A DNA stretch of 36,639 nt from an uncultured Clostridia bacterium (lineage in GTDB: Bacteria > Bacillota > Clostridia > Lachnospirales > Lachnospiraceae): assembly GCA_945622055.1 (NCBI GenBank), contig CALZBV010000001.1, forward strand, positions 1 to 36,639, in the 5' to 3' direction. Numbering within the stretch: position 1 is the first letter of the stretch; every line of letters starts with the position of its first letter. Below the pieces are notes generated by a model that was not told the DNA's origin, made no database searches, and was given only the letters and a program-made list of their open reading frames with translations. Position numbers and translations under genes: made by a program. Positions 6,068 through 31,175 of the stretch are shown one piece after another.

Positions 6068-7519
6068 ATGAGACTCGAAGCACAAAAGCACGCTCCGGTT
6101 TACGAAGCGCTTGAAAAGTTCAGAAAGCAGAGAATCGTCCCGTTTGATGTACCGGGACATAAACGAGGACGCGGAAACCCGGAGCTTAGAGAGCTTCTTG
6201 GAGAGAAGTGTGTCAGCATTGATGTGAATTCAATGAAGCAGTTAGATAATCTTTGTCATCCGATGTCTGTGATTAAGGAGGCGGAGGAGCTTGCAGCAGA
6301 AGCATTTGGTGCAGATCATTGCTTCTTTATGGTAGGCGGAACAACCTCAGCAGTACAGAGTATGGTTTTGACGGCCTGTCGTGCAGGGGATAAGATTATC
6401 CTGCCGAGAAACGTTCATAAAAGTGTAATCAATGCGCTTGTTTTGTGTGGTGCAATCCCGGTGTATGTAAATCCGGAGGTAGATAAAAAGCTTGGTATTT
6501 CCCTGGGAATGGAATTGCCGGAGCTTGAGCGCGCAATCCGTGAGAATCCGGATGCAGTATGTGTTTTGGTGAACAACCCGACCTATTATGGTATCTGTTC
6601 GGATCTTCGTGGAATTGTTAAGCTTGCACATGAACACAATATGCTTGTTCTTGTGGATGAAGCACACGGAACGCATTTATATTTTGGAAAGGACCTTCCG
6701 GTCAATGCGATGGAGGCAGGCGCGGATATGGCCTCGGTTTCTATGCACAAATCCGGTGGAAGTCTGACACAGAGCTCGTTGCTTTTGGTTAACAAGACGG
6801 TAAACTGGGAGTATGTCAGCCAGATTATCAATCTTACACAGACGACCAGTGCATCATATCTTCTGCTTTCCAGCCTCGATATTTCCAGAAGAAATCTTGC
6901 CCTCCGCGGGGAGGAGTCCTTCGCAAAGGTAAGAGAGATGGCAGAATATGCGCGTGCGGAGATAAACTCCGTTGGCGGGTATTACGCATATGGTGCAGAG
7001 ATGATTAACAAAAAGAGCATCTTCGATTTTGATGTCACGAAGCTTTCGATTTATACGAGAGATATTGGTCTGGCCGGAATTGAAGTATATGATTTGCTTC
7101 GGGATGAATACGATATTCAGATAGAATTTGGTGATATTGCAAATATTCTCGCGTACATTTCCATTGGTGACCGGATTCAGGACATTGAACGGCTGGTGGG
7201 TGCGCTTGCGGATATCAAGCGTTTGTATTCGAAGGATCCCTCCCAGATGATGGTGACGGAATATATTGCACCGCAGGTGCTGGTTTCACCGCAGAAGGCG
7301 TTTTATTCTGATAAGACTGCAGTACCGCTTGAGAAGACTGCAGGGAAGATTTGCGGTGAATTTGTTATGTGTTACCCGCCGGGAATTCCGATTCTTGCAC
7401 CGGGTGAGCTGATTACTGCACAGATTATTGAGTATATCCTGTATGCAAAGGAAAAGGGCTGTTCCATGCAGGGAACGCAGGACCCGTATATGAATTATCT
7501 TCAGGTATTTGAACAATAA
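6068..7519 (+). CDS. speA: PLP-dependent arginine (Orn/Lys/Arg family) decarboxylase
   Basis: DVPGHKRG near the N-terminus and the SMHKSGGSLTQSS PLP-lysine motif. The N-terminus aligns with Bacillus-type SpeA only from MRLEAQ. The ORF-track start at 5987 would place the terminator hairpin inside the CDS. ATG 6047 is an in-frame alternative. Confidence 0.85.
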   Translation: MRLEAQKHAPVYEALEKFRKQRIVPFDVPGHKRGRGNPELRELLGEKCVSIDVNSMKQLDNLCHPMSVIKEAEELAAEAFGADHCFFMVGGTTSAVQSMVLTACRAGDKIILPRNVHKSVINALVLCGAIPVYVNPEVDKKLGISLGMELPELERAIRENPDAVCVLVNNPTYYGICSDLRGIVKLAHEHNMLVLVDEAHGTHLYFGKDLPVNAMEAGADMASVSMHKSGGSLTQSSLLLVNKTVNWEYVSQIINLTQTTSASYLLLSSLDISRRNLALRGEESFAKVREMAEYARAEINSVGGYYAYGAEMINKKSIFDFDVTKLSIYTRDIGLAGIEVYDLLRDEYDIQIEFGDIANILAYISIGDRIQDIERLVGALADIKRLYSKDPSQMMVTEYIAPQVLVSPQKAFYSDKTAVPLEKTAGKICGEFVMCYPPGIPILAPGELITAQIIEYILYAKEKGCSMQGTQDPYMNYLQVFEQ

Positions 7520-12116: not shown

Positions 12117-12995
12117 ATGAGAAAAGTATCAGTCGCTGCAATTCAGATGAGGTGTAGTACGATTGTAGAAGAAAATTTGGAGAAGGCAGAGAAAATGGTC
12201 CGCGAGGCAGCGGCAAAGGGTGCTCAGGTAATTCTGCTCCCGGAGCTTTTCGAGCGTGAGTATTTTTGCCAGCAGAGGCAATATGCTTTTTACAAATATG
12301 CGCTTCCGACCGGAGAAAATCCTGCTGTTCGTATGGGACAGCGACTTGCCAGGGAGCTTTCGGTCGTGCTTCCAATCAGTTTTTTTGAGCGTGACGGAAA
12401 TGTTTTGTATAACTCTGTTGCCTGTATTGATGCGGATGGAAAGCTGCTTGGAGTCTATCGGAAAACGCATATTCCGGATGATCATTTTTATCAGGAAAAG
12501 TTTTACTTTACTCCGGGAGATACCGGCTTTCAGGTGTTTTCCACCCGGTATGGAAAGGTCGGCATAGGGATATGCTGGGATCAGTGGTTCCCGGAAACCG
12601 CAAGAAGTCTTGCAATTCTGGGTGCAGAAATGATTCTGTATCCGACGGCAATCGGTTCTGAACCGATTCTAAACAGTGACAGCATGCCACATTGGAGACG
12701 CTGTATGCAGGGCCATGCTGCTGCGAATCTGATGCCTGTGATTGCAGCCAACCGGATCGGTTCGGAAAAGGTGCTTCCATGCGAGGAAAATGCAGGGCTT
12801 TCTTCAGAGCTTTGCTTTTACGGTTCTTCCTTCCTTACAGACGAAACCGGTGAGCTGGTACAGTCTGCAGGACGGGAGGAGGAAACGGTGCTGGTGTGGC
12901 AGTATGATTTGGACACCATTGAAGAGAACCGCCTTTCCTGGGGAGTGTTCCGTGACAGAAGACCGGATATGTACCGCATTATCAGTAATTCGTAA
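12117..12995 (+). CDS. aguB: N-carbamoylputrescine amidase (nitrilase superfamily)
   Basis: CN-hydrolase motifs (LPELF, YRKTHIP, ICWDQWFPE with the catalytic Cys). ATG 12117 has AAAGGAG 6 nt upstream. GTG 12075 is less likely. Confidence 0.85.
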   Translation: MRKVSVAAIQMRCSTIVEENLEKAEKMVREAAAKGAQVILLPELFEREYFCQQRQYAFYKYALPTGENPAVRMGQRLARELSVVLPISFFERDGNVLYNSVACIDADGKLLGVYRKTHIPDDHFYQEKFYFTPGDTGFQVFSTRYGKVGIGICWDQWFPETARSLAILGAEMILYPTAIGSEPILNSDSMPHWRRCMQGHAAANLMPVIAANRIGSEKVLPCEENAGLSSELCFYGSSFLTDETGELVQSAGREEETVLVWQYDLDTIEENRLSWGVFRDRRPDMYRIISNS

Positions 12996-22344: not shown

Positions 22345-23415
22345 ATGGTAGATAAGCTGAAAAAATGGGCAAATGAAATCTTTGTTGACGGATTATCCGG
22401 AATGGCAATGGGACTTTTTGCAACCCTGATTATCGGAACGATTATTCAGCAAATCGGGACACTAATCGGCGGCTCGGTCGGTGATTTTCTGTTTCAAATC
22501 GGAAAGCTGGCATCGGCTGTGACCGGGGCCGGTATCGGCGTAGGCGTGGCGATTAAGTTTAAGGAAAGTACCTTAGTGACGATTTCCGCAGCAACGGCAG
22601 GTATGGTAGGTGCATTTGCGTCGAAGCTGATTGCGGGAGCGGTAGTGAATGGTAGCGTGATTACCCTTGCGGGGCCGGGAGAGCCGTTAGGCGCATTTAT
22701 TGCGGCCTATGTCTGCATTCTGTTCGGACGGCTGGTTGCCGGAAAGACAAAGGTAGATATTCTGGTGACTCCGCTTGTTTCCATTCTGACCGGTTCTACG
22801 GTGGGGCTGCTTCTCGGCCCCCCGATTTCAAGCTTTATGACGTGGCTTGGTAGCATCATCAACTGGGGTACGGAGCAGCAGCCGTTTTTCATGGGCATCG
22901 TTGTTTCTGTCCTGATGGGTATGATTCTGACGCTGCCGATTAGCTCTGCGGCCCTGGGCGTATCGCTCGGACTTTCCGGTATTGCCGCCGGTGCGGCAAC
23001 GATTGGCTGCTGTGCCAATATGGTCGGATTTGCGGTGGCAAGCTACCGTGAGAATAAGATGGGCGGTCTTGTGGCACAGGGACTTGGAACCAGTATGCTT
23101 CAGGTGCCGAATATCGTGAGAAAACCGGTTATCTGGCTCCCGGCCATCCTTACCAGTGCCATCCTGGGACCGTTTTCAACGATGCTGTTCAAAATGACAA
23201 GTAACCCGGTTGGTTCCGGTATGGGAAGTGCCGGTCTTGTCGGCCAGATTATGACCTACCAGACGATGACCGAGGCCGGCTCGAGCCCGGCGGCAGTGCT
23301 TGTCTTAATTGTACTGTTCCAGTTTGCAGCACCGGGCGTACTTGCATTTCTGATTTCCGAGGTGATGCGCAAGGCCGGTTGGATTAAGTCGGGAGATATG
23401 AAACTGGAGGTGTAG
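22345..23415 (+). CDS. PTS EIIC-2-type polytopic membrane protein (PfoR-like)
   Basis: 356 aa, Gly/Ala-rich multi-TM protein. The N-terminus (FVDGLSGMAMGLFATLIIGTIIQQIG) matches my recollection of the PfoR / EIIC_2 family. No EIIA or EIIB partner is nearby. Confidence 0.55.
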   Translation: MVDKLKKWANEIFVDGLSGMAMGLFATLIIGTIIQQIGTLIGGSVGDFLFQIGKLASAVTGAGIGVGVAIKFKESTLVTISAATAGMVGAFASKLIAGAVVNGSVITLAGPGEPLGAFIAAYVCILFGRLVAGKTKVDILVTPLVSILTGSTVGLLLGPPISSFMTWLGSIINWGTEQQPFFMGIVVSVLMGMILTLPISSAALGVSLGLSGIAAGAATIGCCANMVGFAVASYRENKMGGLVAQGLGTSMLQVPNIVRKPVIWLPAILTSAILGPFSTMLFKMTSNPVGSGMGSAGLVGQIMTYQTMTEAGSSPAAVLVLIVLFQFAAPGVLAFLISEVMRKAGWIKSGDMKLEV

Positions 23416-23499: not shown

Positions 23500-24705
23500 A
23501 TGTCAGACGAAATCAAAGTCAAGAGAAACTCAGGAAAAATAAAAGTGGTTATCGCCGTCATGGCGGTAATCATAGTGGCACTTGCCGTTGCAGTCGTACT
23601 GCTCCTGCCAAAGGGCGGAACGGCAAAGAAGGTAGCAAAGCAGCTTTCGCTCGGAGCGAAGTATCTCTCGGAGCTTGAATATGAGCAGGCCATCGCAGCG
23701 TATGAGCTGGCCATCGAGATAGACCCGAAATGCGTGGATGCTTACCTCGAACTCGCAGATATCTACAGCGAGCTGGGCGAGTATGACAAGGCAGAGAAAA
23801 TCCTGAAAAAAGCAAAACGCGAAGTGGCTGAGGAGGAGGTTGCCCAAATCCGCCGGAAGCAGGAAAAGATAGAAAAGAAACGGGAAGAGGCAGAAGGAAC
23901 CCCAGAGCCGACAAAGGAGCCGAAGCCTACCGCAGAACCGGTGCAGACCCCGGAGCCAACCGCTACGCCTACTCCGGAGCCAACGGCTACTCCAACTCCT
24001 ACTCCGGAGCCAACCAAGTCGGTCGGAGGCCAGGTGACAATTACAGGAAGAACAGTGGAATTAGAAAATGCTGAGGTCGGTGACTATGTAACCTTCGGTA
24101 CCTACGAGCAGGACAATAACCTCGGCAACGGAGCCGAAGCCATCGAGTGGCTTGTATTAGACAAGCAGGACGGCAAGGTGCTGTTACTGAGTAAATACGC
24201 GCTGGATGCAAAACCATACAACGAAACAGATACAGCTGTCACTTGGGAAAACTGTACCCTCAGAAGCTGGCTAAACAGCGAGTTCTACCGTACCGCATTC
24301 AGTGAAAAGGAACGAAGCGCTATCGCAGAAACGCTGGTAAGAAATGCAGACAATCCGATGTATGGAACGGAGGGCGGAAATGATACGAGAGACAAGGTAT
24401 TCTTACTCAGTATCGGGGAAGCAACGACCTACTTTGATTCGGACCCGGATGCGTGCGACCCGGCAAGAAGAGCGAAGGTAACGGAGTATGCAAAGGCGCA
24501 GGGCGGTTTCGCATACAGCGAAGCAGAAGATGGATGGTATGGTACGACGGAGTATGACGGCAACGGCGAGTGGTGGCTGCGCTCGCCGGGCGTCGATAGT
24601 GGCAGCGTCGCGGGTGTCAACTACTATGGCTACGTCGGCCGTTACGGCGGCGATGTAGACTACGGCTCTTACGTCGTGCGGCCCGCTTTATGGATGGCGC
24701 CGTAA
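23500..24705 (+). CDS. membrane-anchored TPR / Pro-Thr-linker protein with a C-terminal ligand-binding domain carrying a DGR-type variable region
   Basis: N-terminal TM anchor (VVIAVMAVIIVALAVAVVLLL), a TPR-like segment, a PEPTATPT linker, then a domain with EWLVLD, LLSKYALD, CTLRSWLN, VFLLSIGEA, EWWLRSPG and VRPALW motifs. From memory this is the DUF6273-like family often used as DGR targets. Confidence 0.8.
   Translation: MSDEIKVKRNSGKIKVVIAVMAVIIVALAVAVVLLLPKGGTAKKVAKQLSLGAKYLSELEYEQAIAAYELAIEIDPKCVDAYLELADIYSELGEYDKAEKILKKAKREVAEEEVAQIRRKQEKIEKKREEAEGTPEPTKEPKPTAEPVQTPEPTATPTPEPTATPTPTPEPTKSVGGQVTITGRTVELENAEVGDYVTFGTYEQDNNLGNGAEAIEWLVLDKQDGKVLLLSKYALDAKPYNETDTAVTWENCTLRSWLNSEFYRTAFSEKERSAIAETLVRNADNPMYGTEGGNDTRDKVFLLSIGEATTYFDSDPDACDPARRAKVTEYAKAQGGFAYSEAEDGWYGTTEYDGNGEWWLRSPGVDSGSVAGVNYYGYVGRYGGDVDYGSYVVRPALWMAP
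23950..24015 (+). repeat. imperfect in-frame tandem repeat encoding the PEPTATPT linker (units start at 23950, 23974 and 24004)
   Basis: CCGGAGCCAAC recurs three times at spacings of 24 and 30 nt. Confidence 0.7.
24592..24675 (+). other. candidate DGR variable region (VR) core
   Basis: 28 consecutive codons between the conserved flanks EWWLRSPG and VRPALW. 19 end in C, 7 end in T and 2 are otherwise (GCG, GTA). They encode only V, D, S, G, A, N, Y and R, all reachable from AAC/AAT by adenine mutagenesis. Confidence 0.65.
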
Positions 24706-24730
24706 TCTGGCATCTGGAATCTGCCAATCT

Positions 24731-24752
24731 GCGAAAGGTGAAAGCCTTTTGC
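24731..24752 (+). other. stem-loop with a GAAA tetraloop 26 nt downstream of the VR gene stop
   Basis: GCGAAAGGU-GAAA-GCCUUUUGC, 9 bp including two G.U pairs. Two further small GC hairpins follow at 24760..24776 and 24786..24797. Confidence 0.5.
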
Positions 24753-24808
24753 AAATCAGGCGCGGCGGAGACGCGCAATCCCCGACGCCGTAAGGCGGCG
24801 AAAAAATT

Positions 24809-25174
24809 TTGGCAGGAAAGGAGGTGAGGAGCATCGCGAAGAAAGAAAGTGAGCTGATGGTGGTGACGAAGGCGAAGGATTTGTGTTCCTATGTGATGAA
24901 GATAACGGAACGCTCGCCAAAGCGGTTTCGTTTTACCTTCGTCAGCCGGTTACAGAATCTATCGTTAGACACGATAGAGAATATCTTTCGTGCCAATGAT
25001 TTGTTTGTCAGCAAGGGGGATGAAAGTGCGTTGGCTTTGCGGTTGGAATTTCAGCAAAGAGCACTAACCTCAGTCAGACTGCTTTCCTACTTTGCGTTAC
25101 TGGCAACAGAATCAGGCTGTCTGCTGACAAAACAGTATGAGCAGAATCCGATATTATTCACGATACATGGATGA
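24809..25174 (+). CDS. avd: Avd-like four-helix-bundle protein (DGR accessory variability determinant) with a non-native C-terminus
   Basis: The pattern TKAKDLCSYVMKITERSPKRFRFTFVSRLQNLSLDTIENIFRANDLF...LLTKQYEQ matches my recollection of Firmicutes/Bacteroidetes DGR Avd proteins. Homology stops at about 25144, and the last 9 codons are read out of frame from an RT fragment. The true start is uncertain (TTG 24809, GTG 24824 or ATG 24857). Confidence 0.65.
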   Translation: MAGKEVRSIAKKESELMVVTKAKDLCSYVMKITERSPKRFRFTFVSRLQNLSLDTIENIFRANDLFVSKGDESALALRLEFQQRALTSVRLLSYFALLATESGCLLTKQYEQNPILFTIHG

Positions 25175-25247
25175 CTGTATCCTTGTTCATGAGGATAAGC
25201 AATACTTAAAGCAGTGCCTATATAAGATGCGTGCATATGTTGAATAA
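25146..25247 (+). pseudogene. reverse-transcriptase fragment (motif C region only); DGR RT remnant
   Basis: The +2 frame relative to avd reads IRYYSRYMDDCILVHEDKQYLKQCLYKMRAYVE followed by a stop. This is the YxDD box plus the typical DK.YL helix. No RT motifs 1-4 lie upstream. A possible weak continuation in another frame (YENKTQV..TGLDSF, 25252..25308) follows. Confidence 0.7.
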
Positions 25248-25836
25248 GGTGTATGAAAACAAAACCCAGGTCACCTATGAGGTAACACAGACAGGGCTTG
25301 ACAGCTTTTCGCTTAAGGATTTTTCCGCACAGGCAGATGCAGGAACCGGAAAGCTGATGGAATTTATTGTAGATTCGGATGAAATCGGAGCAGAAACAGG
25401 ACAGTTCTTTTACAAGAACATGGATGGTCTGTTTGCGGAAAAAACCGGGTCAGGCAGCACAGGGGAGGACTCTGCAGGTGAAGCTTCCGGCACTTCCGAG
25501 GACAACACGCCGGTTTACACCGGCTCCGATAAATGTACCCACTGTAGCGGTACAGGAAAAACGAGAGAGGATTATGCGTGGTGTCACCGCACCGGAAAGA
25601 AGAACTGTCCGGACTGTAACGGGACGGGAAAGGAACGCTGTACCGGCTGTGGCGGCGACGGGAAAAACTGGGACTCGTTAAATGGAACATATTCTAAATG
25701 TTATAAGTGCTTTGGCAATGGTAAGATGACCTGCGATAAATGTCGAGGTACAGGTGATGTTAACTGTAACAGCTGTAATGGCAAGGGGTATAATCAGAAA
25801 ACCTGTACGTTTTGTTTCGGAACCGGAAAACAATGA
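25231..25836 (+). CDS. hypothetical protein with seven CxxCxGxG (DnaJ-CR-like zinc-finger) motifs; the N-terminus is possibly chimeric with RT debris
   Basis: Motifs CTHCSGTG, CPDCNGTG, CTGCGGDG, CYKCFGNG, CDKCRGTG, CNSCNGKG and CTFCFGTG lie in the last about 100 aa. No convincing SD precedes GTG 25231, ATG 25237 or ATG 25357. A strong terminator follows. Confidence 0.4.
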   Translation: MHMLNKVYENKTQVTYEVTQTGLDSFSLKDFSAQADAGTGKLMEFIVDSDEIGAETGQFFYKNMDGLFAEKTGSGSTGEDSAGEASGTSEDNTPVYTGSDKCTHCSGTGKTREDYAWCHRTGKKNCPDCNGTGKERCTGCGGDGKNWDSLNGTYSKCYKCFGNGKMTCDKCRGTGDVNCNSCNGKGYNQKTCTFCFGTGKQ

Positions 25837-25893
25837 TGCGCCGTTGAACGGTTACAAAATGATTTGCAATCCACGCGGTGAACCCGCGGAGCA

Positions 25894-25928
25894 GGAGCTA
25901 CTGTAGGTCTACAGTGGCTCCCTTTTTT
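25894..25928 (+). terminator. intrinsic terminator
   Basis: GGAGCTACTGTA...TACAGTGGCTCC (about 12 bp with one G.U pair) followed by CTTTTTT. Confidence 0.8.
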
Positions 25929-26242
25929 GAAATATTCACCAAATTCACTCCTGCTTTTTTGGTACATTTTTACAAACTTTTCATCCACATAAACAGTTCT
26001 CAAACCATTGATTTTAAAGGCTTTTCCGGTACCTTTTACTCTGTACACTTTTTTATTTTCCATTGCAAACACTCACTTTTTCTGCTACACTTTCTATACA
26101 GACAGTTCTAAGGAAGTGCTGATTAATTCAGTGCTTCCCAATAAATATTCAATTCTACGCTGTCTTCTTACGGCGGTTTCACGCCAAAGTTCCATTACTT
26201 TTTTGTTATATTGCAATTACGTTACTTGGGAGGAGGAATTAA

Positions 26243-27250
26243 ATGGAACAGGAGATTTTTACACAAAAGACAAAGGAAGAGGTTTTATTTAACCTCAAAA
26301 AGTCACCGGATGCCTACAGACGTTTTCTCGGACTGGACGAAAGGTGGCAGGAGCTTTTCATGGCATTCTGCACGGGAAAGAAAACACTGCCGGTACTCTA
26401 TGACACCGTATTCAAGAAGCTGATGGATCCGGAAGTCCACAGGGACCGGCTTGAGGACTGTGTTTCCAGCCTGCTTGGGAGAAAGGTGAAAATCAGGAAA
26501 GTATTGCCTGTTGAGGATATCCTGATGGACGGGGAAACCATCATGGTCATGGATATTCTGGTGGAGCTTGACGACGGCTCACTGGTACTGGTGGAAATCC
26601 AGAAGGTGCCGTACTATTTTCCGGCGGAGCGGGCGTCCTGCTATTCCGCAGATTTGCTGCTCCGTCAGTACAACAGCTTGAAAAGCAAGAAGGGCAAGGA
26701 CTTCAGCTACAGGGATTTACAGAAGGTCTACACTATCATCCTGTATGAGAAAAGCACGGCAGAATTCAAAACCTGCAACGAGATATTCGTACATCACGCC
26801 TCCACAGTCTGTGACAGCGGACTGGAGCTGAATTTCTTACAGGAATTCTACCTTATAGCACTTGACGTATTTGCCAAAAGCGAGTATGCTAAAGTTAAGA
26901 AACCGAACGACCGGATAAATGCCTGGCTGTCCTTCTTCTGTACGGAAAATACAGAAGATGCGATAAGGCTTTGTGAGATTTACCCGTGGCTTTCGGAGGC
27001 TTATAAAGAAATGGCAGGGTTTGCAGCCAATCCGGAGGAGTTGATAGGTATGTTTTCAGAAATGTTGCACGAGTTAGACCGCAATACTACCCGCTATATG
27101 GTAGATGATATGAGGGAGAAAATAGAAAAACAGGGCAAAACCATTGTCGAGCAACAAGGGACTATTGCCGAACTGCAGGGGTCTGTTACCGAACTGCAGA
27201 GATTAGTTGATGAGCAAAGGGCTGAAATCAAACGTTTGATGAAAAAATAA
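26243..27250 (+). mobile_element. PD-(D/E)XK nuclease family putative transposase (Rpn / Transposase_31-like) CDS
   Basis: 335 aa. The nuclease core pattern is MVMDILVELDDGSLVLVEIQK. The C-terminus is a coiled coil (IVEQQGTIAELQGSVTELQRLVDEQRAEIKRL). SD GGGAGGAGG lies upstream. I did not see terminal inverted repeats. Confidence 0.7.
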
Positions 27251-27307: not shown

Positions 27308-29347
27308 TTACTCCGCCAGCTCTTCCCATTGTTCCATCAGCTTCTCAAGCCTGCCTTCGATCTCTTCCCGTTCCTTACTTAATTCTGTCAGTTTTGTATG
27401 ATCGGAAGCAATATCCGGGTTGGAGAGAGCGGTATCCAGCTTCTCCATTTGTTTCTCCAGACGCTCGATTTCTTCTTCCGTCTTTTTTAGGTCATTCTGA
27501 CGTTTGCGGAGGCGTGCCTGTTCCTCCTTTTGCTGCTGCCAGTCGAGCTTTGTGTCTGTGACAGCAGAAGACATACTACCTCCCGCGGAAGTGGCCGCGT
27601 CAAAGCCTGCGGAAGCACCGGAAGAACCGGAAGTCCCGCGCACGGTGGGAGCACCCGAAGCAGAAACACTGCCGACAGAAGCGCCGGCCTTCCCTTTCCC
27701 TTCCATACCGTACCCGATACCCTCTAAATAGAGTCGTTCCGTAATTTCCTTCTTTTCCAGATAAAAGTCATAGTTCCCCGGATAATTAAGGAGAGTCTGC
27801 TCCGTCAAATCAAGGATTCTTGTTGCGGTTTTATTGATAAAATAACGGTCGTGGGAAACGTACAGGACGGTTCCCTCGTAGGCGTTAACGGCATCCTCTA
27901 GGATTTCCTTGGACACGATGTCTAAGTGATTCGTCGGCTCGTCCAAAATAAGCAGGTTCGCATCCGAAAGCATGAGTTTGGCTAAAGATACGCGCCCTCG
28001 TTCACCGCCGCTTAAATCACGGATGCGCTTAAATACATCGTCTCCGGTAAAGAGGAATGCGGCGAGGACATTGCGGATGGCTGTGTTATCCATATACGGA
28101 TAGGTGTCCTGCAGCTCGTCAAACAAGGTCTTTTCGGCATGGAGTACCTGATGCTCCTGGTCGTAATAGGCGATATGCACCTTAGCTCCCGGCTTGATTT
28201 CTCCGGCATCCGCAGGCAAAAGTCCATTTATTATTTTAAGAATTGTAGTCTTTCCGGTGCCGTTCTTTCCGATAATGGCAACCTTTTCTCCGCGCTTAAC
28301 GTCAAAGCTTAAATCCGAAAACAGAGTCTGACTGCCGAAGGATTTCGAGAGTCCGGTGACAGTAAGAACGTCGTTTCCGCTCATGATATGCGGCTCTAAG
28401 CGAATCTTCATTTTACTGCGTACCTCGGTCGGTTTTTCGATACGTTCTACTTTATCCAGCATTTTTTCACGGCTTTCCGCACGTCTGATAGACTTTTCAC
28501 GGTTAAAGGAGCGGAGCTTTGCGATAACCTCCTCCTGATGCTTGATTTCACGCTGCTGATTTAAGTAATGCTGAATCTGAGTTTCACGTTGCTGTTCCTT
28601 TTTGACAGCGTAAGCAGAGTAATTGCCGGAGAAGGTCTGTGCCTTTCCACCGTCCAGTTCTACTACCTTAGTGACTACACGGTCTAAAAAGTAACGGTCA
28701 TGGGCAACAATTAAAACTGCTCCCGGATAGTTCATCAGATATGTTTCCAGCCAGGCGATAGATTCCATGTCCAGATGGTTGGTCGGCTCGTCAAGCATAA
28801 TCAGATCCGGCGAGGTGAGGAGCAGCCGTCCGAGTGCAATGCGGGTTTTCTGACCGCCGGATAAGGTCTGAATCTGTTTTTGAAAATCTTCTTCCGAAAA
28901 GCCGAGTCCTTTTAAGACGCCGACTACCTCGCTTTTATAGGCATAGCCATTTTGCATTTCGAAGGTATGGGTCAGGGATGTGTACTCTTTCAGAAGTGAT
29001 TCGAGCGCATCGCCCTCAAGTCCTTTCATTTCAAGCTCTATTTCACGGATGCGGGCTTCGGTTTTAAGAATTTCCGCCTTGACGGAAAGCATTTCCTCAT
29101 AAACGGTACGTTCCGAGGAAAGGTCCTGATGCTGGGAAAGGTAGCCGATGGTAGCCCCCTTTGCGGTAATGACTTCTCCGGAATCAGCAGGATATTCCTG
29201 CATGATAATTTTCAACAGGGTGGATTTTCCTGCACCGTTGATGCCGACAATCGCCATCTTTTCGCGTTCATTTATGTGAAAGGAGACCTGGTTGAGAATG
29301 ACAGCTTCACCAAAGGATTTGATAATATTTTTACATGCGAGTAGCAT
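27308..29347 (-). CDS. ABC-F family ATPase (two ABC domains, no TM domain; ribosome-associated class) with a Gly/Ser/Ala-rich linker and a C-terminal coiled coil
   Basis: Two Walker A motifs (GINGAGKST, GKNGTGKTT) and two signatures (LSGGQK, LSGGER). ATG at 29347 is preceded by GGAGG. The 82 upstream codons of the ORF-track call are AT-rich promoter DNA. Confidence 0.88.
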   Translation of the reverse strand: MLLACKNIIKSFGEAVILNQVSFHINEREKMAIVGINGAGKSTLLKIIMQEYPADSGEVITAKGATIGYLSQHQDLSSERTVYEEMLSVKAEILKTEARIREIELEMKGLEGDALESLLKEYTSLTHTFEMQNGYAYKSEVVGVLKGLGFSEEDFQKQIQTLSGGQKTRIALGRLLLTSPDLIMLDEPTNHLDMESIAWLETYLMNYPGAVLIVAHDRYFLDRVVTKVVELDGGKAQTFSGNYSAYAVKKEQQRETQIQHYLNQQREIKHQEEVIAKLRSFNREKSIRRAESREKMLDKVERIEKPTEVRSKMKIRLEPHIMSGNDVLTVTGLSKSFGSQTLFSDLSFDVKRGEKVAIIGKNGTGKTTILKIINGLLPADAGEIKPGAKVHIAYYDQEHQVLHAEKTLFDELQDTYPYMDNTAIRNVLAAFLFTGDDVFKRIRDLSGGERGRVSLAKLMLSDANLLILDEPTNHLDIVSKEILEDAVNAYEGTVLYVSHDRYFINKTATRILDLTEQTLLNYPGNYDFYLEKKEITERLYLEGIGYGMEGKGKAGASVGSVSASGAPTVRGTSGSSGASAGFDAATSAGGSMSSAVTDTKLDWQQQKEEQARLRKRQNDLKKTEEEIERLEKQMEKLDTALSNPDIASDHTKLTELSKEREEIEGRLEKLMEQWEELAE

Positions 29348-29492
29348 AAAACCTCCAAAATACAGTAATACATAGATGTCAAAGCAAATTTCCACGAATA
29401 AATTATACAATAAGCAGAAGAGAAAAACAAGGTGCCAAATCCGGTCAGACGGTAAAATGAAACGAAAATGAAAAAACAATTTTATTATTTTC

Positions 29493-29521
29493 TTGAAAAA
29501 AATATACAAATGATATATAAT
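29493..29521 (+). promoter_or_regulatory. sigma-A promoter: TTGAAA, 17-nt spacer, TATAAT
   Basis: -35 at 29493..29498 and -10 at 29516..29521, in the AT-rich divergent intergenic region. Confidence 0.55.
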
Positions 29522-29576
29522 TATAATATAAAACTGACGATTTTGGGGAATATAGGAGAAGAAAGGAGTGGACAGG

Positions 29577-31175
29577 ATGTTTATAGAATTCATCGGTGCG
29601 GATCATGAGGTGACCGGTAGCTGTCATTATCTGGAATTGGCGGGAACGCATCTTCTGGTTGACTGCGGAATGGAGCAGGGAACGGATGTCTATGAGAACC
29701 AGGAGCTTCCGGTAAATGCCGGAGAAATCGATTATATCCTTTTGACGCATGCGCATATTGACCATACAGGGCTGCTTCCGCTGATGTATGCAAGAGGCTT
29801 CCGTGGAAAAGTATACACAACGGGAGCAACGAGAGACCTCTGTGATATTATGCTTCGGGACTCTGCGCATATCCAGATGTTTGAGGCAGAATGGAAAAAC
29901 AGAAAGGCAAAACGTTCGGGACTTCCGGAGGTTGTACCGCTCTACACGATGGAGGATGCCTTTGGCGTGATGAAGCATTTTGTTCCGTGTGACTATGGAG
30001 TGAAGGTTAGTCTGACGGACAATATCACGATACGCTTTACGGATGTCGGACATCTCCTCGGCTCTGCAAGTATTGAAATCTGGGCAAGTGAGGGAGAAGA
30101 TAAAGTAAAGCTTGTATTTTCCGGTGATATCGGAAACAAGTCCCAGCCGATTTTACGCGATCCGATCATGACGGATGAGGCAGACTATGTGATTATGGAG
30201 TCTACCTACGGAGACCGTTATCACGGGGAACACCCGGACTATGTAGGAGATCTGGCGGCAATTATCCAAAAGACACTGGACCGTGGCGGGAATGTGGTAA
30301 TTCCGGCCTTTGCAGTTGGAAGAACCCAGGAGCTTTTGTATTTTATCCGTAAGATTAAGCTCGATGGTCTGGTTCACGGACATGACGGATTCCCGGTATA
30401 TGTGGATAGTCCGCTTGCAATTGAAGCAACGACGATTTTCAACCGAAATGTCAACGGTTATTTTGACGAAGAGGCAATGGAGCTCGTACGACAGGGTGTG
30501 AATCCGATTTCTTTTCCGGGTCTTCGGACTGCGATTACGAGTGAAGAATCGAAAATGATTAACATGGATACACAGCCGAAGGTTATTATTTCCGCTTCCG
30601 GTATGTGTGAAGCGGGGCGTATCCGTCATCATCTGAAGCATAATCTCTGGAGAGCAAATTCCTCGATTGTATTTGTCGGATATCAGGCAAATGGGACGTT
30701 GGGACGCTCCCTGCTTGAGGGCATTGATGAGGTAAATCTGTTCGGAGAGCCGGTAGAGGTACGTGCGGAGATTTGCAAGCTGGAGGGCATCAGCGGACAT
30801 GCGGATAAAAACGGATTGATTCAGTGGGTTACCCAGATTGAGAGACCTCATAAGGTTTTTGTGGTTCATGGAGAGGATTCGGTTTGCGACCTTTTTGCGA
30901 ATTGTCTGAAAACGGAATATGGTCTGGATGCAGAGGCCCCGTATTCCGGTCACCGGTATGATCTTTTGGGAAAATGCTGGGTGGCACAGGAGGCGCCGAT
31001 TTACGCTCAAAAGAAGGAAAAAGCAAAAAAACGCAAGGTGGAGGTGTTCGAACGCCTTCTTGCCGCAGGTCAGAGGCTGCTTAGCGTTATCCGCAGAAAT
31101 GAGGGCGGAGCGAACAAGGACCTTGCGCGATTTGCGGACCAGATCAATCAGCTTTGTGATAAGTGGGACAGATAA
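29577..31175 (+). CDS. MBL-fold beta-CASP family RNA-metabolising hydrolase
   Basis: HAHIDHTG metallo-beta-lactamase motif. The beta-CASP elements are DYVIMESTYG and ISGHAD near the C-terminal third. ATG 29577 lies 8 nt after AAAGGAG. Confidence 0.82.
   Translation: MFIEFIGADHEVTGSCHYLELAGTHLLVDCGMEQGTDVYENQELPVNAGEIDYILLTHAHIDHTGLLPLMYARGFRGKVYTTGATRDLCDIMLRDSAHIQMFEAEWKNRKAKRSGLPEVVPLYTMEDAFGVMKHFVPCDYGVKVSLTDNITIRFTDVGHLLGSASIEIWASEGEDKVKLVFSGDIGNKSQPILRDPIMTDEADYVIMESTYGDRYHGEHPDYVGDLAAIIQKTLDRGGNVVIPAFAVGRTQELLYFIRKIKLDGLVHGHDGFPVYVDSPLAIEATTIFNRNVNGYFDEEAMELVRQGVNPISFPGLRTAITSEESKMINMDTQPKVIISASGMCEAGRIRHHLKHNLWRANSSIVFVGYQANGTLGRSLLEGIDEVNLFGEPVEVRAEICKLEGISGHADKNGLIQWVTQIERPHKVFVVHGEDSVCDLFANCLKTEYGLDAEAPYSGHRYDLLGKCWVAQEAPIYAQKKEKAKKRKVEVFERLLAAGQRLLSVIRRNEGGANKDLARFADQINQLCDKWDR

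Follow-up and report, generated by a model that had tools for sequence, protein, structure and literature searches.

A DGR-type variable region in a DUF6273 protein gene whose local Avd-TR-RT cassette has been deleted

Here we describe a target gene and its 3' flank within a 36.6-kb window, by which we mean the whole stretch of DNA that was analysed. The gene occupies positions 23500–24705 of the + strand and encodes a protein of 401 aa, as determined from the list of open reading frames, Pfam matches and an AlphaFold2 model of residues 178–401. Downstream of it, on the same strand, lie a hairpin, the remnant of an avd gene and a relic of an RT gene; the locus is adjoined by a gene for a PDDEXK_2 protein, and members of that protein's 90% cluster carry the label Lachnospiraceae bacterium. 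A membrane-protein gene at 22345–23415 and an ABC-F gene at 27308–29593 flank the locus. Reading along the sequence of the target protein, a Lys/Arg-rich N-terminus is followed by a hydrophobic anchor stretch at residues 14–36, and a Pro/Thr linker is found at residues about 133–174. Pfam places TPR repeats between the two, at residues 50–118, and matches residues 224–399 to DUF6273 (PF19789) with an E-value of 3.8e-33 and 115.2 bits against a cut-off of 23.5. We put the full extent of the DUF6273 domain at about residues 178–401. An earlier note on this DNA had proposed just such a layout, with a TM anchor, a TPR segment, a PT linker and a C-terminal domain, and the Pfam matches and our reading of the sequence confirm it.

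DUF6273 is a published DGR target, in which the variable region (VR) lies at the C-terminus and forms a beta-hairpin (PMC10743442, PMC11792537). The target has 4,136 DUF6273 homologues at E <= 1e-5, and in an alignment of the closest of these everything is conserved except for a hypervariable stretch between the motifs WWLRSPG and VRPA(L/F)W. The AlphaFold2 model, generated from 84 sequences, has a pLDDT of 95 and a pTM of 0.91, and the run of codons described below forms a beta-hairpin in it, with strands at model residues 192–196 and 202–208. When this model was compared with the PDB by Foldseek, the sole significant match was 9qa6 (E 2.4e-8, TM 0.62), the N-terminal DUF6273 domain of an IgA protease from Thomasclavelia ramosa, and a comparison with viral models returned phage DUF6273 proteins. 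Foldseek found no match between the domain model and Mtd, TvpA or lectins, and a sequence search of the PDB with the target gave nothing significant. The VR hairpin of the target presumably binds a ligand.

The VR core is a run of 28 codons at 24592–24675 (+ strand), delimited by its NNY count and by alignment to the sibling template repeat of contig L035. It is in frame with the ORF at 23500–24705, is flanked by EWWLRSPG and VRPALW, and encodes VDSGSVAGVNYYGYVGRYGGDVDYGSYV. Twenty-six of its 28 codons end in C or T, compared with 151 of the gene's other 373 codons (40%; binomial tail 8.7e-9), and when a frame of 28 codons was slid along the gene, the maximum of 26 NNY codons was reached at the run only. 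The adenine content is 16.7% in the run, as against 29.7% over the gene. The 28 codons quoted in the earlier note, and the NNY excess it saw in them, are therefore correct, with the frame exact; the codon pattern is real, and a chance effect is excluded.

Past the run, the homology between VR and template ends at 24679–24686 (+ strand) in a GC-rich element, CGGCCCGC, which occupies the IMH position; in the alignments, VR and TR diverge right after it. A related GC-rich element, mostly CGCCCCGCTTT, is found at the VR ends of most related loci. Between the stop codon and the hairpin, at 24704–24730 (+ strand), there are three AATCT repeats (starting at 24704, 24718 and 24726), a motif that recurs at the equivalent place in related DGR targets. 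The hairpin or cruciform itself, GCGAAAGGT-GAAA-GCCTTTTGC, was located at 24731–24752 (+ strand) by DNA folding, with a stem of 9–10 bp and a z-score of -2.9 for the 113-nt segment. It starts approximately 45 nt past the end of TR homology and carries a GRNA-type tetraloop, GAAA. Both of its G.T wobbles are G-C in contig L029, and in L007 and most of the related loci L011–L019 a hairpin occupies the equivalent place, with unrelated stems and loops of 3–4 nt. A hairpin or cruciform with a 7–10 bp stem and a GRNA loop is required for DGR target recognition, and by the standards of that work (PMC3240598) the window locus has both the GC-rich end and the GRNA-loop hairpin of a DGR VR. Since these cis elements are intact, the VR is still a competent recipient in principle, and diversification in trans therefore has to be weighed.

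The Avd remnant lies at 24824–25144 (+ strand), as determined by tblastn (93% identity to residues 1–107 of the Avd of contig L004), blastn and a partial Pfam match to bAvd. The mechanical ORF around it runs from 24809 to 25174, and its last nine residues (NPILFTIHG) are derived from a junction with other sequence. The protein is truncated past residue 107 of 132, and its bAvd match, at 24.4 bits, is partial and below the cut-off of 40. The Avd-like gene that the earlier note had placed just downstream of the target is thus present, but as a truncated gene that scores under the bAvd cut-off. By blastn, positions 24780–25145 of the window correspond to positions 1–367 of L004 (90% identity) and positions 25144–25240 to L004 1438–1534 (88% identity). 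The L004 blocks on either side share 2 nt (GA), which places a deletion junction at 25144–25145. Compared with L004, 1,070 bp (L004 368–1437) are absent, with GA as the microhomology, and the deleted content comprises the final 25 Avd codons, the entire TR, a spacer, and RT codons 1–243. What remains of the RT is a relic of 33 codons at 25146–25244 (+ strand), IRYYSRYMDDCILVHEDKQYLKQCLYKMRAYVE, which corresponds to RT residues 244–276, includes the YMDD box, and was identified by translation, tblastn (97% to the L004 RT) and blastn. Its frame differs from that of the Avd remnant. Homology to the RT ends at approximately 25240, with 97 nt left, and RT residues 277–379 are also absent. Elsewhere in the window, RT similarity was confined to a single weak match at 12171–12521, of the order expected by chance (E 0.27, 25% identity). 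Within the 36.6-kb window, then, the locus has no functional RT, no TR and no full-length Avd: the local DGR cassette is dead. Of the canonical target-avd-TR-RT order claimed in the earlier note, only a wreck survives: a shortened avd, no TR, and 33 out-of-frame codons of the RT. Because the TR was lost along with the RT, there is no local template for the window VR.

The junction is crossed continuously by the alignments of 14 contigs (L005, L006 and L023–L034) from 14 other ENA and Logan samples. Samples with the deletion allele include SRR27108384, SRR27108380, SRR10828610, SRR23253397 and ERZ9424069. Among the contigs examined, the truncated Avd occurs in 21 and the intact Avd in two. The polarity of the change is unambiguous, since a shortened Avd that runs out of frame into a fragment from within an RT cannot be ancestral, and the truncated allele is the derived one.

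A template for the VR was found in sibling contigs. No repeat of the VR is present anywhere in the 36.6-kb window, and the TR has no match in IMG/VR viral contigs. A search with the truncated Avd ORF of the window led to P0122, an intact Avd of 132 aa (93% identical) encoded on L004, a 2-kb Logan contig from SRR22974095; it is followed there by an RT of 379 aa, and an AAC/AAT-rich repeat, the TR, sits between the two genes. L035, a second metagenome contig belonging to the window's species pool and obtained from ERR12020519, likewise has an intact Avd and a TR. Its avd region (L035 1–380) is 98.4% identical to window 24766–25145, and the 58 nt that it covers ahead of avd match the intergenic DNA of the window, so it is unlikely that L035 and L004 represent an unrelated locus whose TR resembles the VR only through common DUF6273 coding sequence. 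The TRs used for comparison thus come from sibling metagenome contigs and not from the window's genome. Over 125 nt, the stretch at 24562–24686 (+ strand) aligns to both without a gap: it differs from the L035 TR (485–609) by 28 mismatches, of which 24 are at TR adenines (Fisher 2e-11), and from the L004 TR (472–596) by 32, with 23 at TR adenines (Fisher 3e-8). Within the 84-nt run, the L035 TR accounts for 26 of its mismatches, and 24 of these are at adenines (15 A to G, 8 A to T and 1 A to C).

In the L035 TR, 17 of the 28 codons of the run are AAC or AAT and 25 have C or T in the third position. The NNY signature of the VR is therefore inherited from the design of the template. The earlier note had placed all of the run's residues in the set reachable from AAC/AAT codons; by the sibling TR, 17 codons have such an origin, whereas the other 11 are fixed scaffold codons, eight of which (GTC, GGC, AGT, GCC and GAC codons) are also NNY. 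Its proposal that a TR be sought failed within the window and succeeded in L035 and L004, where the mismatches are mostly at TR adenines. The sibling TRs, the adenine bias, the L029 allele and the DUF6273 domain all support its central claim of a DGR VR at the C-terminus of a surface-anchored protein, and the codon run is a genuine DGR hypermutation target. The 21-mer TGGTGGCTGCGCTCGCCGGGC, which encodes WWLRSPG, was rejected as a probe for the locus, as it recurs in numerous DUF6273 VRs and TRs, with exact copies in upwards of 120 stretches of metagenome DNA, a lower bound. None of the 21-mer stretches listed is an orthologue of the window locus, the best BLAST match being 76 nt at 86%, and a scan of metagenome contigs with the 3' flank of the target gave no match. 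Since the 21-mer is so widely carried, part of the DNA similarity within the DUF6273 family is ordinary conservation.

Alleles of the VR were reached via the neighbouring truncated Avd, because the 401-aa target has no exact record and the nearest entry in a set of 5.8 billion proteins is only 75% identical over the domain. Eight other contigs span the VR. In seven of them (L023, L024, L026, L027, L030, L031 and L032) the run is identical to that of the window (84/84), though their gene bodies differ from it by 3–10%. The loop that precedes the VR (24500–24562) has two forms, set apart by 27 differences over 62 positions, an indel included, and the downstream region 24809–27250 differs by less than 1% among contigs. 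The VR is the least variable segment of a polymorphic gene, the reverse of the pattern left by an active DGR; across these seven contigs, which come from different samples, it is not more variable than its surroundings. In public metagenomes, the frozen VR allele with the deletion is the common form of this locus, and an intact Avd-TR-RT is rare. The occurrence of an identical VR and remnant block beside a highly mosaic gene body could also be the trace of a sweep.

The eighth contig, L029, carries an alternative allele. Over 129 nt its VR differs from that of the window at 27 positions, distributed 15/11/1 over codon positions 1/2/3, and 21 of the 27 fall where the L004 TR has an A; against the L035 TR, it has 24 differences, with 22 at adenines. 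The earlier note had asked whether polymorphism is confined to the first two codon positions, and 26 of the 27 differences between the window and L029, the one alternative allele, are of this kind. This pattern shows past DGR-type diversification of the VR at the window locus. The suggestion that the specificity of the protein "was, or still is, being diversified" is therefore upheld in its first half, by the L029 allele and the TR pattern, and unsupported in its second, as the VR is 84/84 identical in seven samples whose gene bodies differ. In L029, divergence extends over the whole target gene and its 3' flank (8/133 before avd), and then there are no differences in the 336 nt from avd on. 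Because the divergence drops so abruptly at avd, L029 appears to be either a recombinant or a chimeric contig. We considered whether L029 could be used to argue for diversification after the deletion, and rejected this as unproven, given that the divergence spans the whole target and stops at avd. Contig breaks at 24709–24766 were likewise rejected as a sign of VR heterogeneity, since they fall past the VR, around the hairpin.

The explanation that best fits the locus, and which we hold to be very probable, is that the run is the core of a DGR VR, that the cassette has since been deleted, and that the orphan VR is frozen in its last written state. Going by the known DGR mechanism, the AAC/AAT-rich TR would have been transcribed and then reverse-transcribed with adenine-specific errors, and the resulting cDNA would have overwritten the VR, with the GC-rich VR end and the GAAA hairpin beyond it acting as guides. 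A single 1,070-bp deletion has since fused Avd codon 107 to RT codon 244 with the loss of the TR, and a second truncation has taken the RT C-terminus. The orphan VR would then keep the last-written variant on a surface beta-hairpin of a membrane-anchored DUF6273 protein. Most likely, no other DGR in the genome still serves the window VR.

This last point is where a rival account could enter, namely that the VR is still diversified in trans by a DGR with a matching TR, located elsewhere in the genome, on a prophage, or gained by recombination with intact strains. We judge this improbable. The recipient side is in order, with a conserved GC-rich VR end and hairpin, and suitable donors exist: intact sibling cassettes with a fitting TR occur in the same species pool (L035, L004), and DGRs with multiple targets are known in the clade (L007, L014, L015). 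However, no second RT or TR is present within the window, the viral contigs of IMG/VR contain no match to the TR, and the VR is the same in seven of eight other contigs though the gene otherwise varies. Rewriting in trans would also explain why the window-type and the L029 VR alleles are both linked to avd remnants that do not differ over 336 nt, but the divergence pattern of L029 (8/133, then 0/336) suits a recombination breakpoint or a chimera better than mutagenesis in place. Several short-read contigs stop within approximately 70 nt past the stop codon of the target, as they would at repeated or heterogeneous sequence. The orphan VR may still be rewritten in trans on occasion, with L029 as one product.

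Much less credible is the idea that the NNY run is a compositional trait of a conserved DUF6273 beta-hairpin rich in Gly, Tyr, Val and Asp, with the neighbouring four-helix bundle a coincidence. The run aligns base for base to an AAY-rich, non-coding repeat between the sibling Avd and RT, with 24 of 28 mismatches at adenines, and the adjoining avd remnant and RT relic are about 90–98% identical to the siblings at the DNA level. Scaffold constraint does explain 11 of the 28 codons, eight of them NNY, the WWLRSPG 21-mer is found verbatim in more than 120 metagenome stretches, and the gene of the closest homologue, P0001, has rplA on one side and rplJ on the other but no DGR in its vicinity, which also made P0001 useless as a route to the TR. 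Yet 26 of the 27 differences between alleles fall at codon positions 1 and 2, contrary to what neutral drift would give, and this pattern, together with the alignments to the L004 and L035 TRs, refutes a compositional origin. The least likely account of all is that an artefact of assembly, a collapsed repeat, explains the absence of the TR and RT, and that the real genome has an intact cassette. The window is indeed a metagenome-assembled contig, and VR/TR repeats confuse assemblers. A repeat collapse is nonetheless ruled out because what meets at the junction is Avd codon 107 and RT codon 244, not VR and TR, and the artefact is further refuted by the recurrence of the junction, base for base, in 14 independently assembled ENA and Logan contigs.

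Read as an orphan VR beside a deleted cassette, the locus is a clean natural case of DGR death, in which a single microhomology deletion took the TR and most of the RT and spared the target gene, the recognition elements and the last-written variant. It confirms that a DGR VR can be detected by reading sequence only. Automated DGR finders need an RT and a TR/VR pair; this locus would escape them, and its target would be annotated as just another DUF6273 protein. Matched intact and deleted DGR alleles in one species also allow the adaptive fixation of surface-binding specificity to be asked about in a gut, Lachnospiraceae-like host. One such scenario is an on/off polymorphism in which rare strains keep the DGR intact, while the deletion allele locked in one receptor variant and spread through the species; we regard this as rather doubtful, but if true it would be a documented case of a DGR discarded after a successful variant. 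Our understanding of how DGRs work is unchanged by the window locus, which is an ordinary example of a known system in decay.

To place the locus among related systems, we scanned species-representative genome contigs, among which the window's own species is absent, with the intact Avd; this returned 12 loci, all at <=60% identity. Most of them have the order DUF6273 target, Avd, TR, RT, and 90–100% of their TR/VR mismatches are at adenines, for example 24/24 in L013, 15/15 and 20/20 in L015, and 22/22 in L016. Several in the clade (L007, L014 and L015) are multi-target DGRs. The L004 RT contains LGNQSSQ, which we take to be the DGR-type motif 4. It matches 144 phage records, Bordetella phages among them, and shares 46% identity with the RT of the published DGR phage nd12. 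The window locus works in the manner of a standard DGR of the Firmicute clade targeting DUF6273 proteins, and descends from one. Published members include the "tentaclins" of nd4 and nd12 (PMC10743442) and the Faecalibacterium prophages Lelie, CP11, Roos and Pioen (PMC11792537), with which it shares the DUF6273 target, the C-terminal beta-hairpin VR and, in related loci, the order of target, Avd, TR and RT. Unlike these phage DGRs, the window locus is chromosomal, situated between purL-type and ABC-F-type genes with no phage genes near; its target is a membrane-anchored TPR protein rather than a tail protein, and its cassette is without TR and RT.

The DGR of Bordetella phage BPP-1 (Mtd/Avd/TR/Brt) resembles the window locus in its adenine-specific TR-to-VR changes, in a VR at the 3' end of the target, in the GC-rich end of homology, in a downstream hairpin with a 7–10 bp stem and a GRNA loop (GAAA in the window), and in an Avd between target and TR. 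The spacing differs, however: in the phage examples the hairpin lies 4–34 bp from the VR (PMC3240598), whereas that of the window is approximately 45 nt from the end of homology, with AATCT repeats in the gap. Also unlike BPP-1, the window target is a DUF6273 protein without a Foldseek link to Mtd, and the locus has no functional RT, TR or Avd. The T. ramosa IgA protease (9qa6; PMC12402451), whose DUF6273 domain is the only solved structure matching the window model, is secreted by a gut Firmicute and has a predicted sortase-type anchor to the cell wall; its DUF6273 domain is fused to an M64 peptidase, unlike that of the window target, and nothing links it to a DGR.

Decay by deletion within the RT recurs in the clade. 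RT-internal deletions occur in L007, L008 and L010, where the L007-type RT is without residues 1–217, and in L012, which is without residues about 115–234. As at the window locus, the DUF6273 targets of these loci keep VRs with adenine-type mismatches, but unlike it, they retain both the TR and a full Avd.

Loss of the reverse transcriptase (RT) seems to be recurrent in the clade of diversity-generating retroelement (DGR) loci related to that of the window. In L007, L008 and L010, the RTs are damaged and residues 1-217 are missing, with the remaining RT match in L007 spanning positions 6575-7048. Loci of this type retain the template repeat (TR; 6418-6544) and two DUF6273 targets, in whose variable regions (VRs) most mismatches to the TR fall on adenines (23 of 26 in one and 21 of 29 in the other). 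The related locus L012 also carries a damaged RT (6082-6723), here lacking residues ~115-234. Among the contigs sharing the deletion junction of the window, L034 (ERZ28614197) has an IS607-like pair at 1048-2812, immediately upstream of the avd remnant, consisting of a MerR/resolvase serine recombinase and an OrfB_IS605/TnpB protein. L034 is homologous to the window only from 24822 onward and thus has neither the target gene nor the VR at this site, an arrangement that looks like a later stage of decay.

The target gene itself varies upstream of the VR. The loop at 24500-24562, which directly precedes the VR, occurs in two forms among strains, with …FAYSEAEDGWYGTTEYDGNGEWW… in the window and …AYWNDWDDEYYGNGWWF… in the other form. 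These differ at 27 of 62 positions, a 21-nt indel included, and the neighboring VR is identical in strains with the alternative loop. The mosaic structure suggests that the gene body has been shaped by recombination among alleles or paralogues. An exact 21-mer, TGGTGGCTGCGCTCGCCGGGC, which encodes WWLRSPG, is present in at least 120 stretches of metagenome DNA, with gut and soil among the sources. The 25 listed are those richest in AAY codons; in these, 17-27 of the 30 following codons end in C or T, and three are AAY-rich TRs (L075, L064, and L061). The 21-mer may be a handy DNA probe for VRs of this kind.

Repeated AATCT and AAATC motifs lie between the target stop codon and the hairpin (24704-24730) and again right after the hairpin (24753-24757). 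Distantly related DGR targets of the clade, in L007 and L011-L017, have conserved them in matching places. The motifs may represent a clade-specific recognition element; we know of no description of it. Several independent short-read contigs also start around the hairpin, no more than ~70 nt past the target stop codon. The 5' ends of five deletion-junction contigs (L005, L006, L025, L028, and L033) and of L035, a sibling with intact Avd and TR, map to 24709-24766, and the other such sibling, L004, starts at ~24780. This clustering could reflect sequence common to other targets or a drop in coverage at the hairpin.

Beyond the cassette is a Cys-rich ORF of 199 aa (25237-25836, listed from a GTG at 25231) with repeated CxxCxGxG motifs and weak matches to the DnaJ central domain and DUF5351. 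Its ATG falls within the final bases of the RT relic (GCATATGT), and most deletion-carrying contigs that span the ORF show at most 5 differences over 599 nt. The ORF may be native or may have arisen by fusion at the second breakpoint. Two genes beyond the RT relic is a PD-(D/E)XK "transposase" family protein (26243-27250; PDDEXK_2, E 3.6e-13), whose 90% cluster has 19 members spread over many contigs. An ABC-F-type ATPase is encoded on the minus strand at 27308-29593, where the mechanical ORF of 761 aa includes an implausible hydrophobic N-terminal extension. Since the protein is called at 676-678 aa on sibling contigs, the real start is probably ~85 codons downstream.
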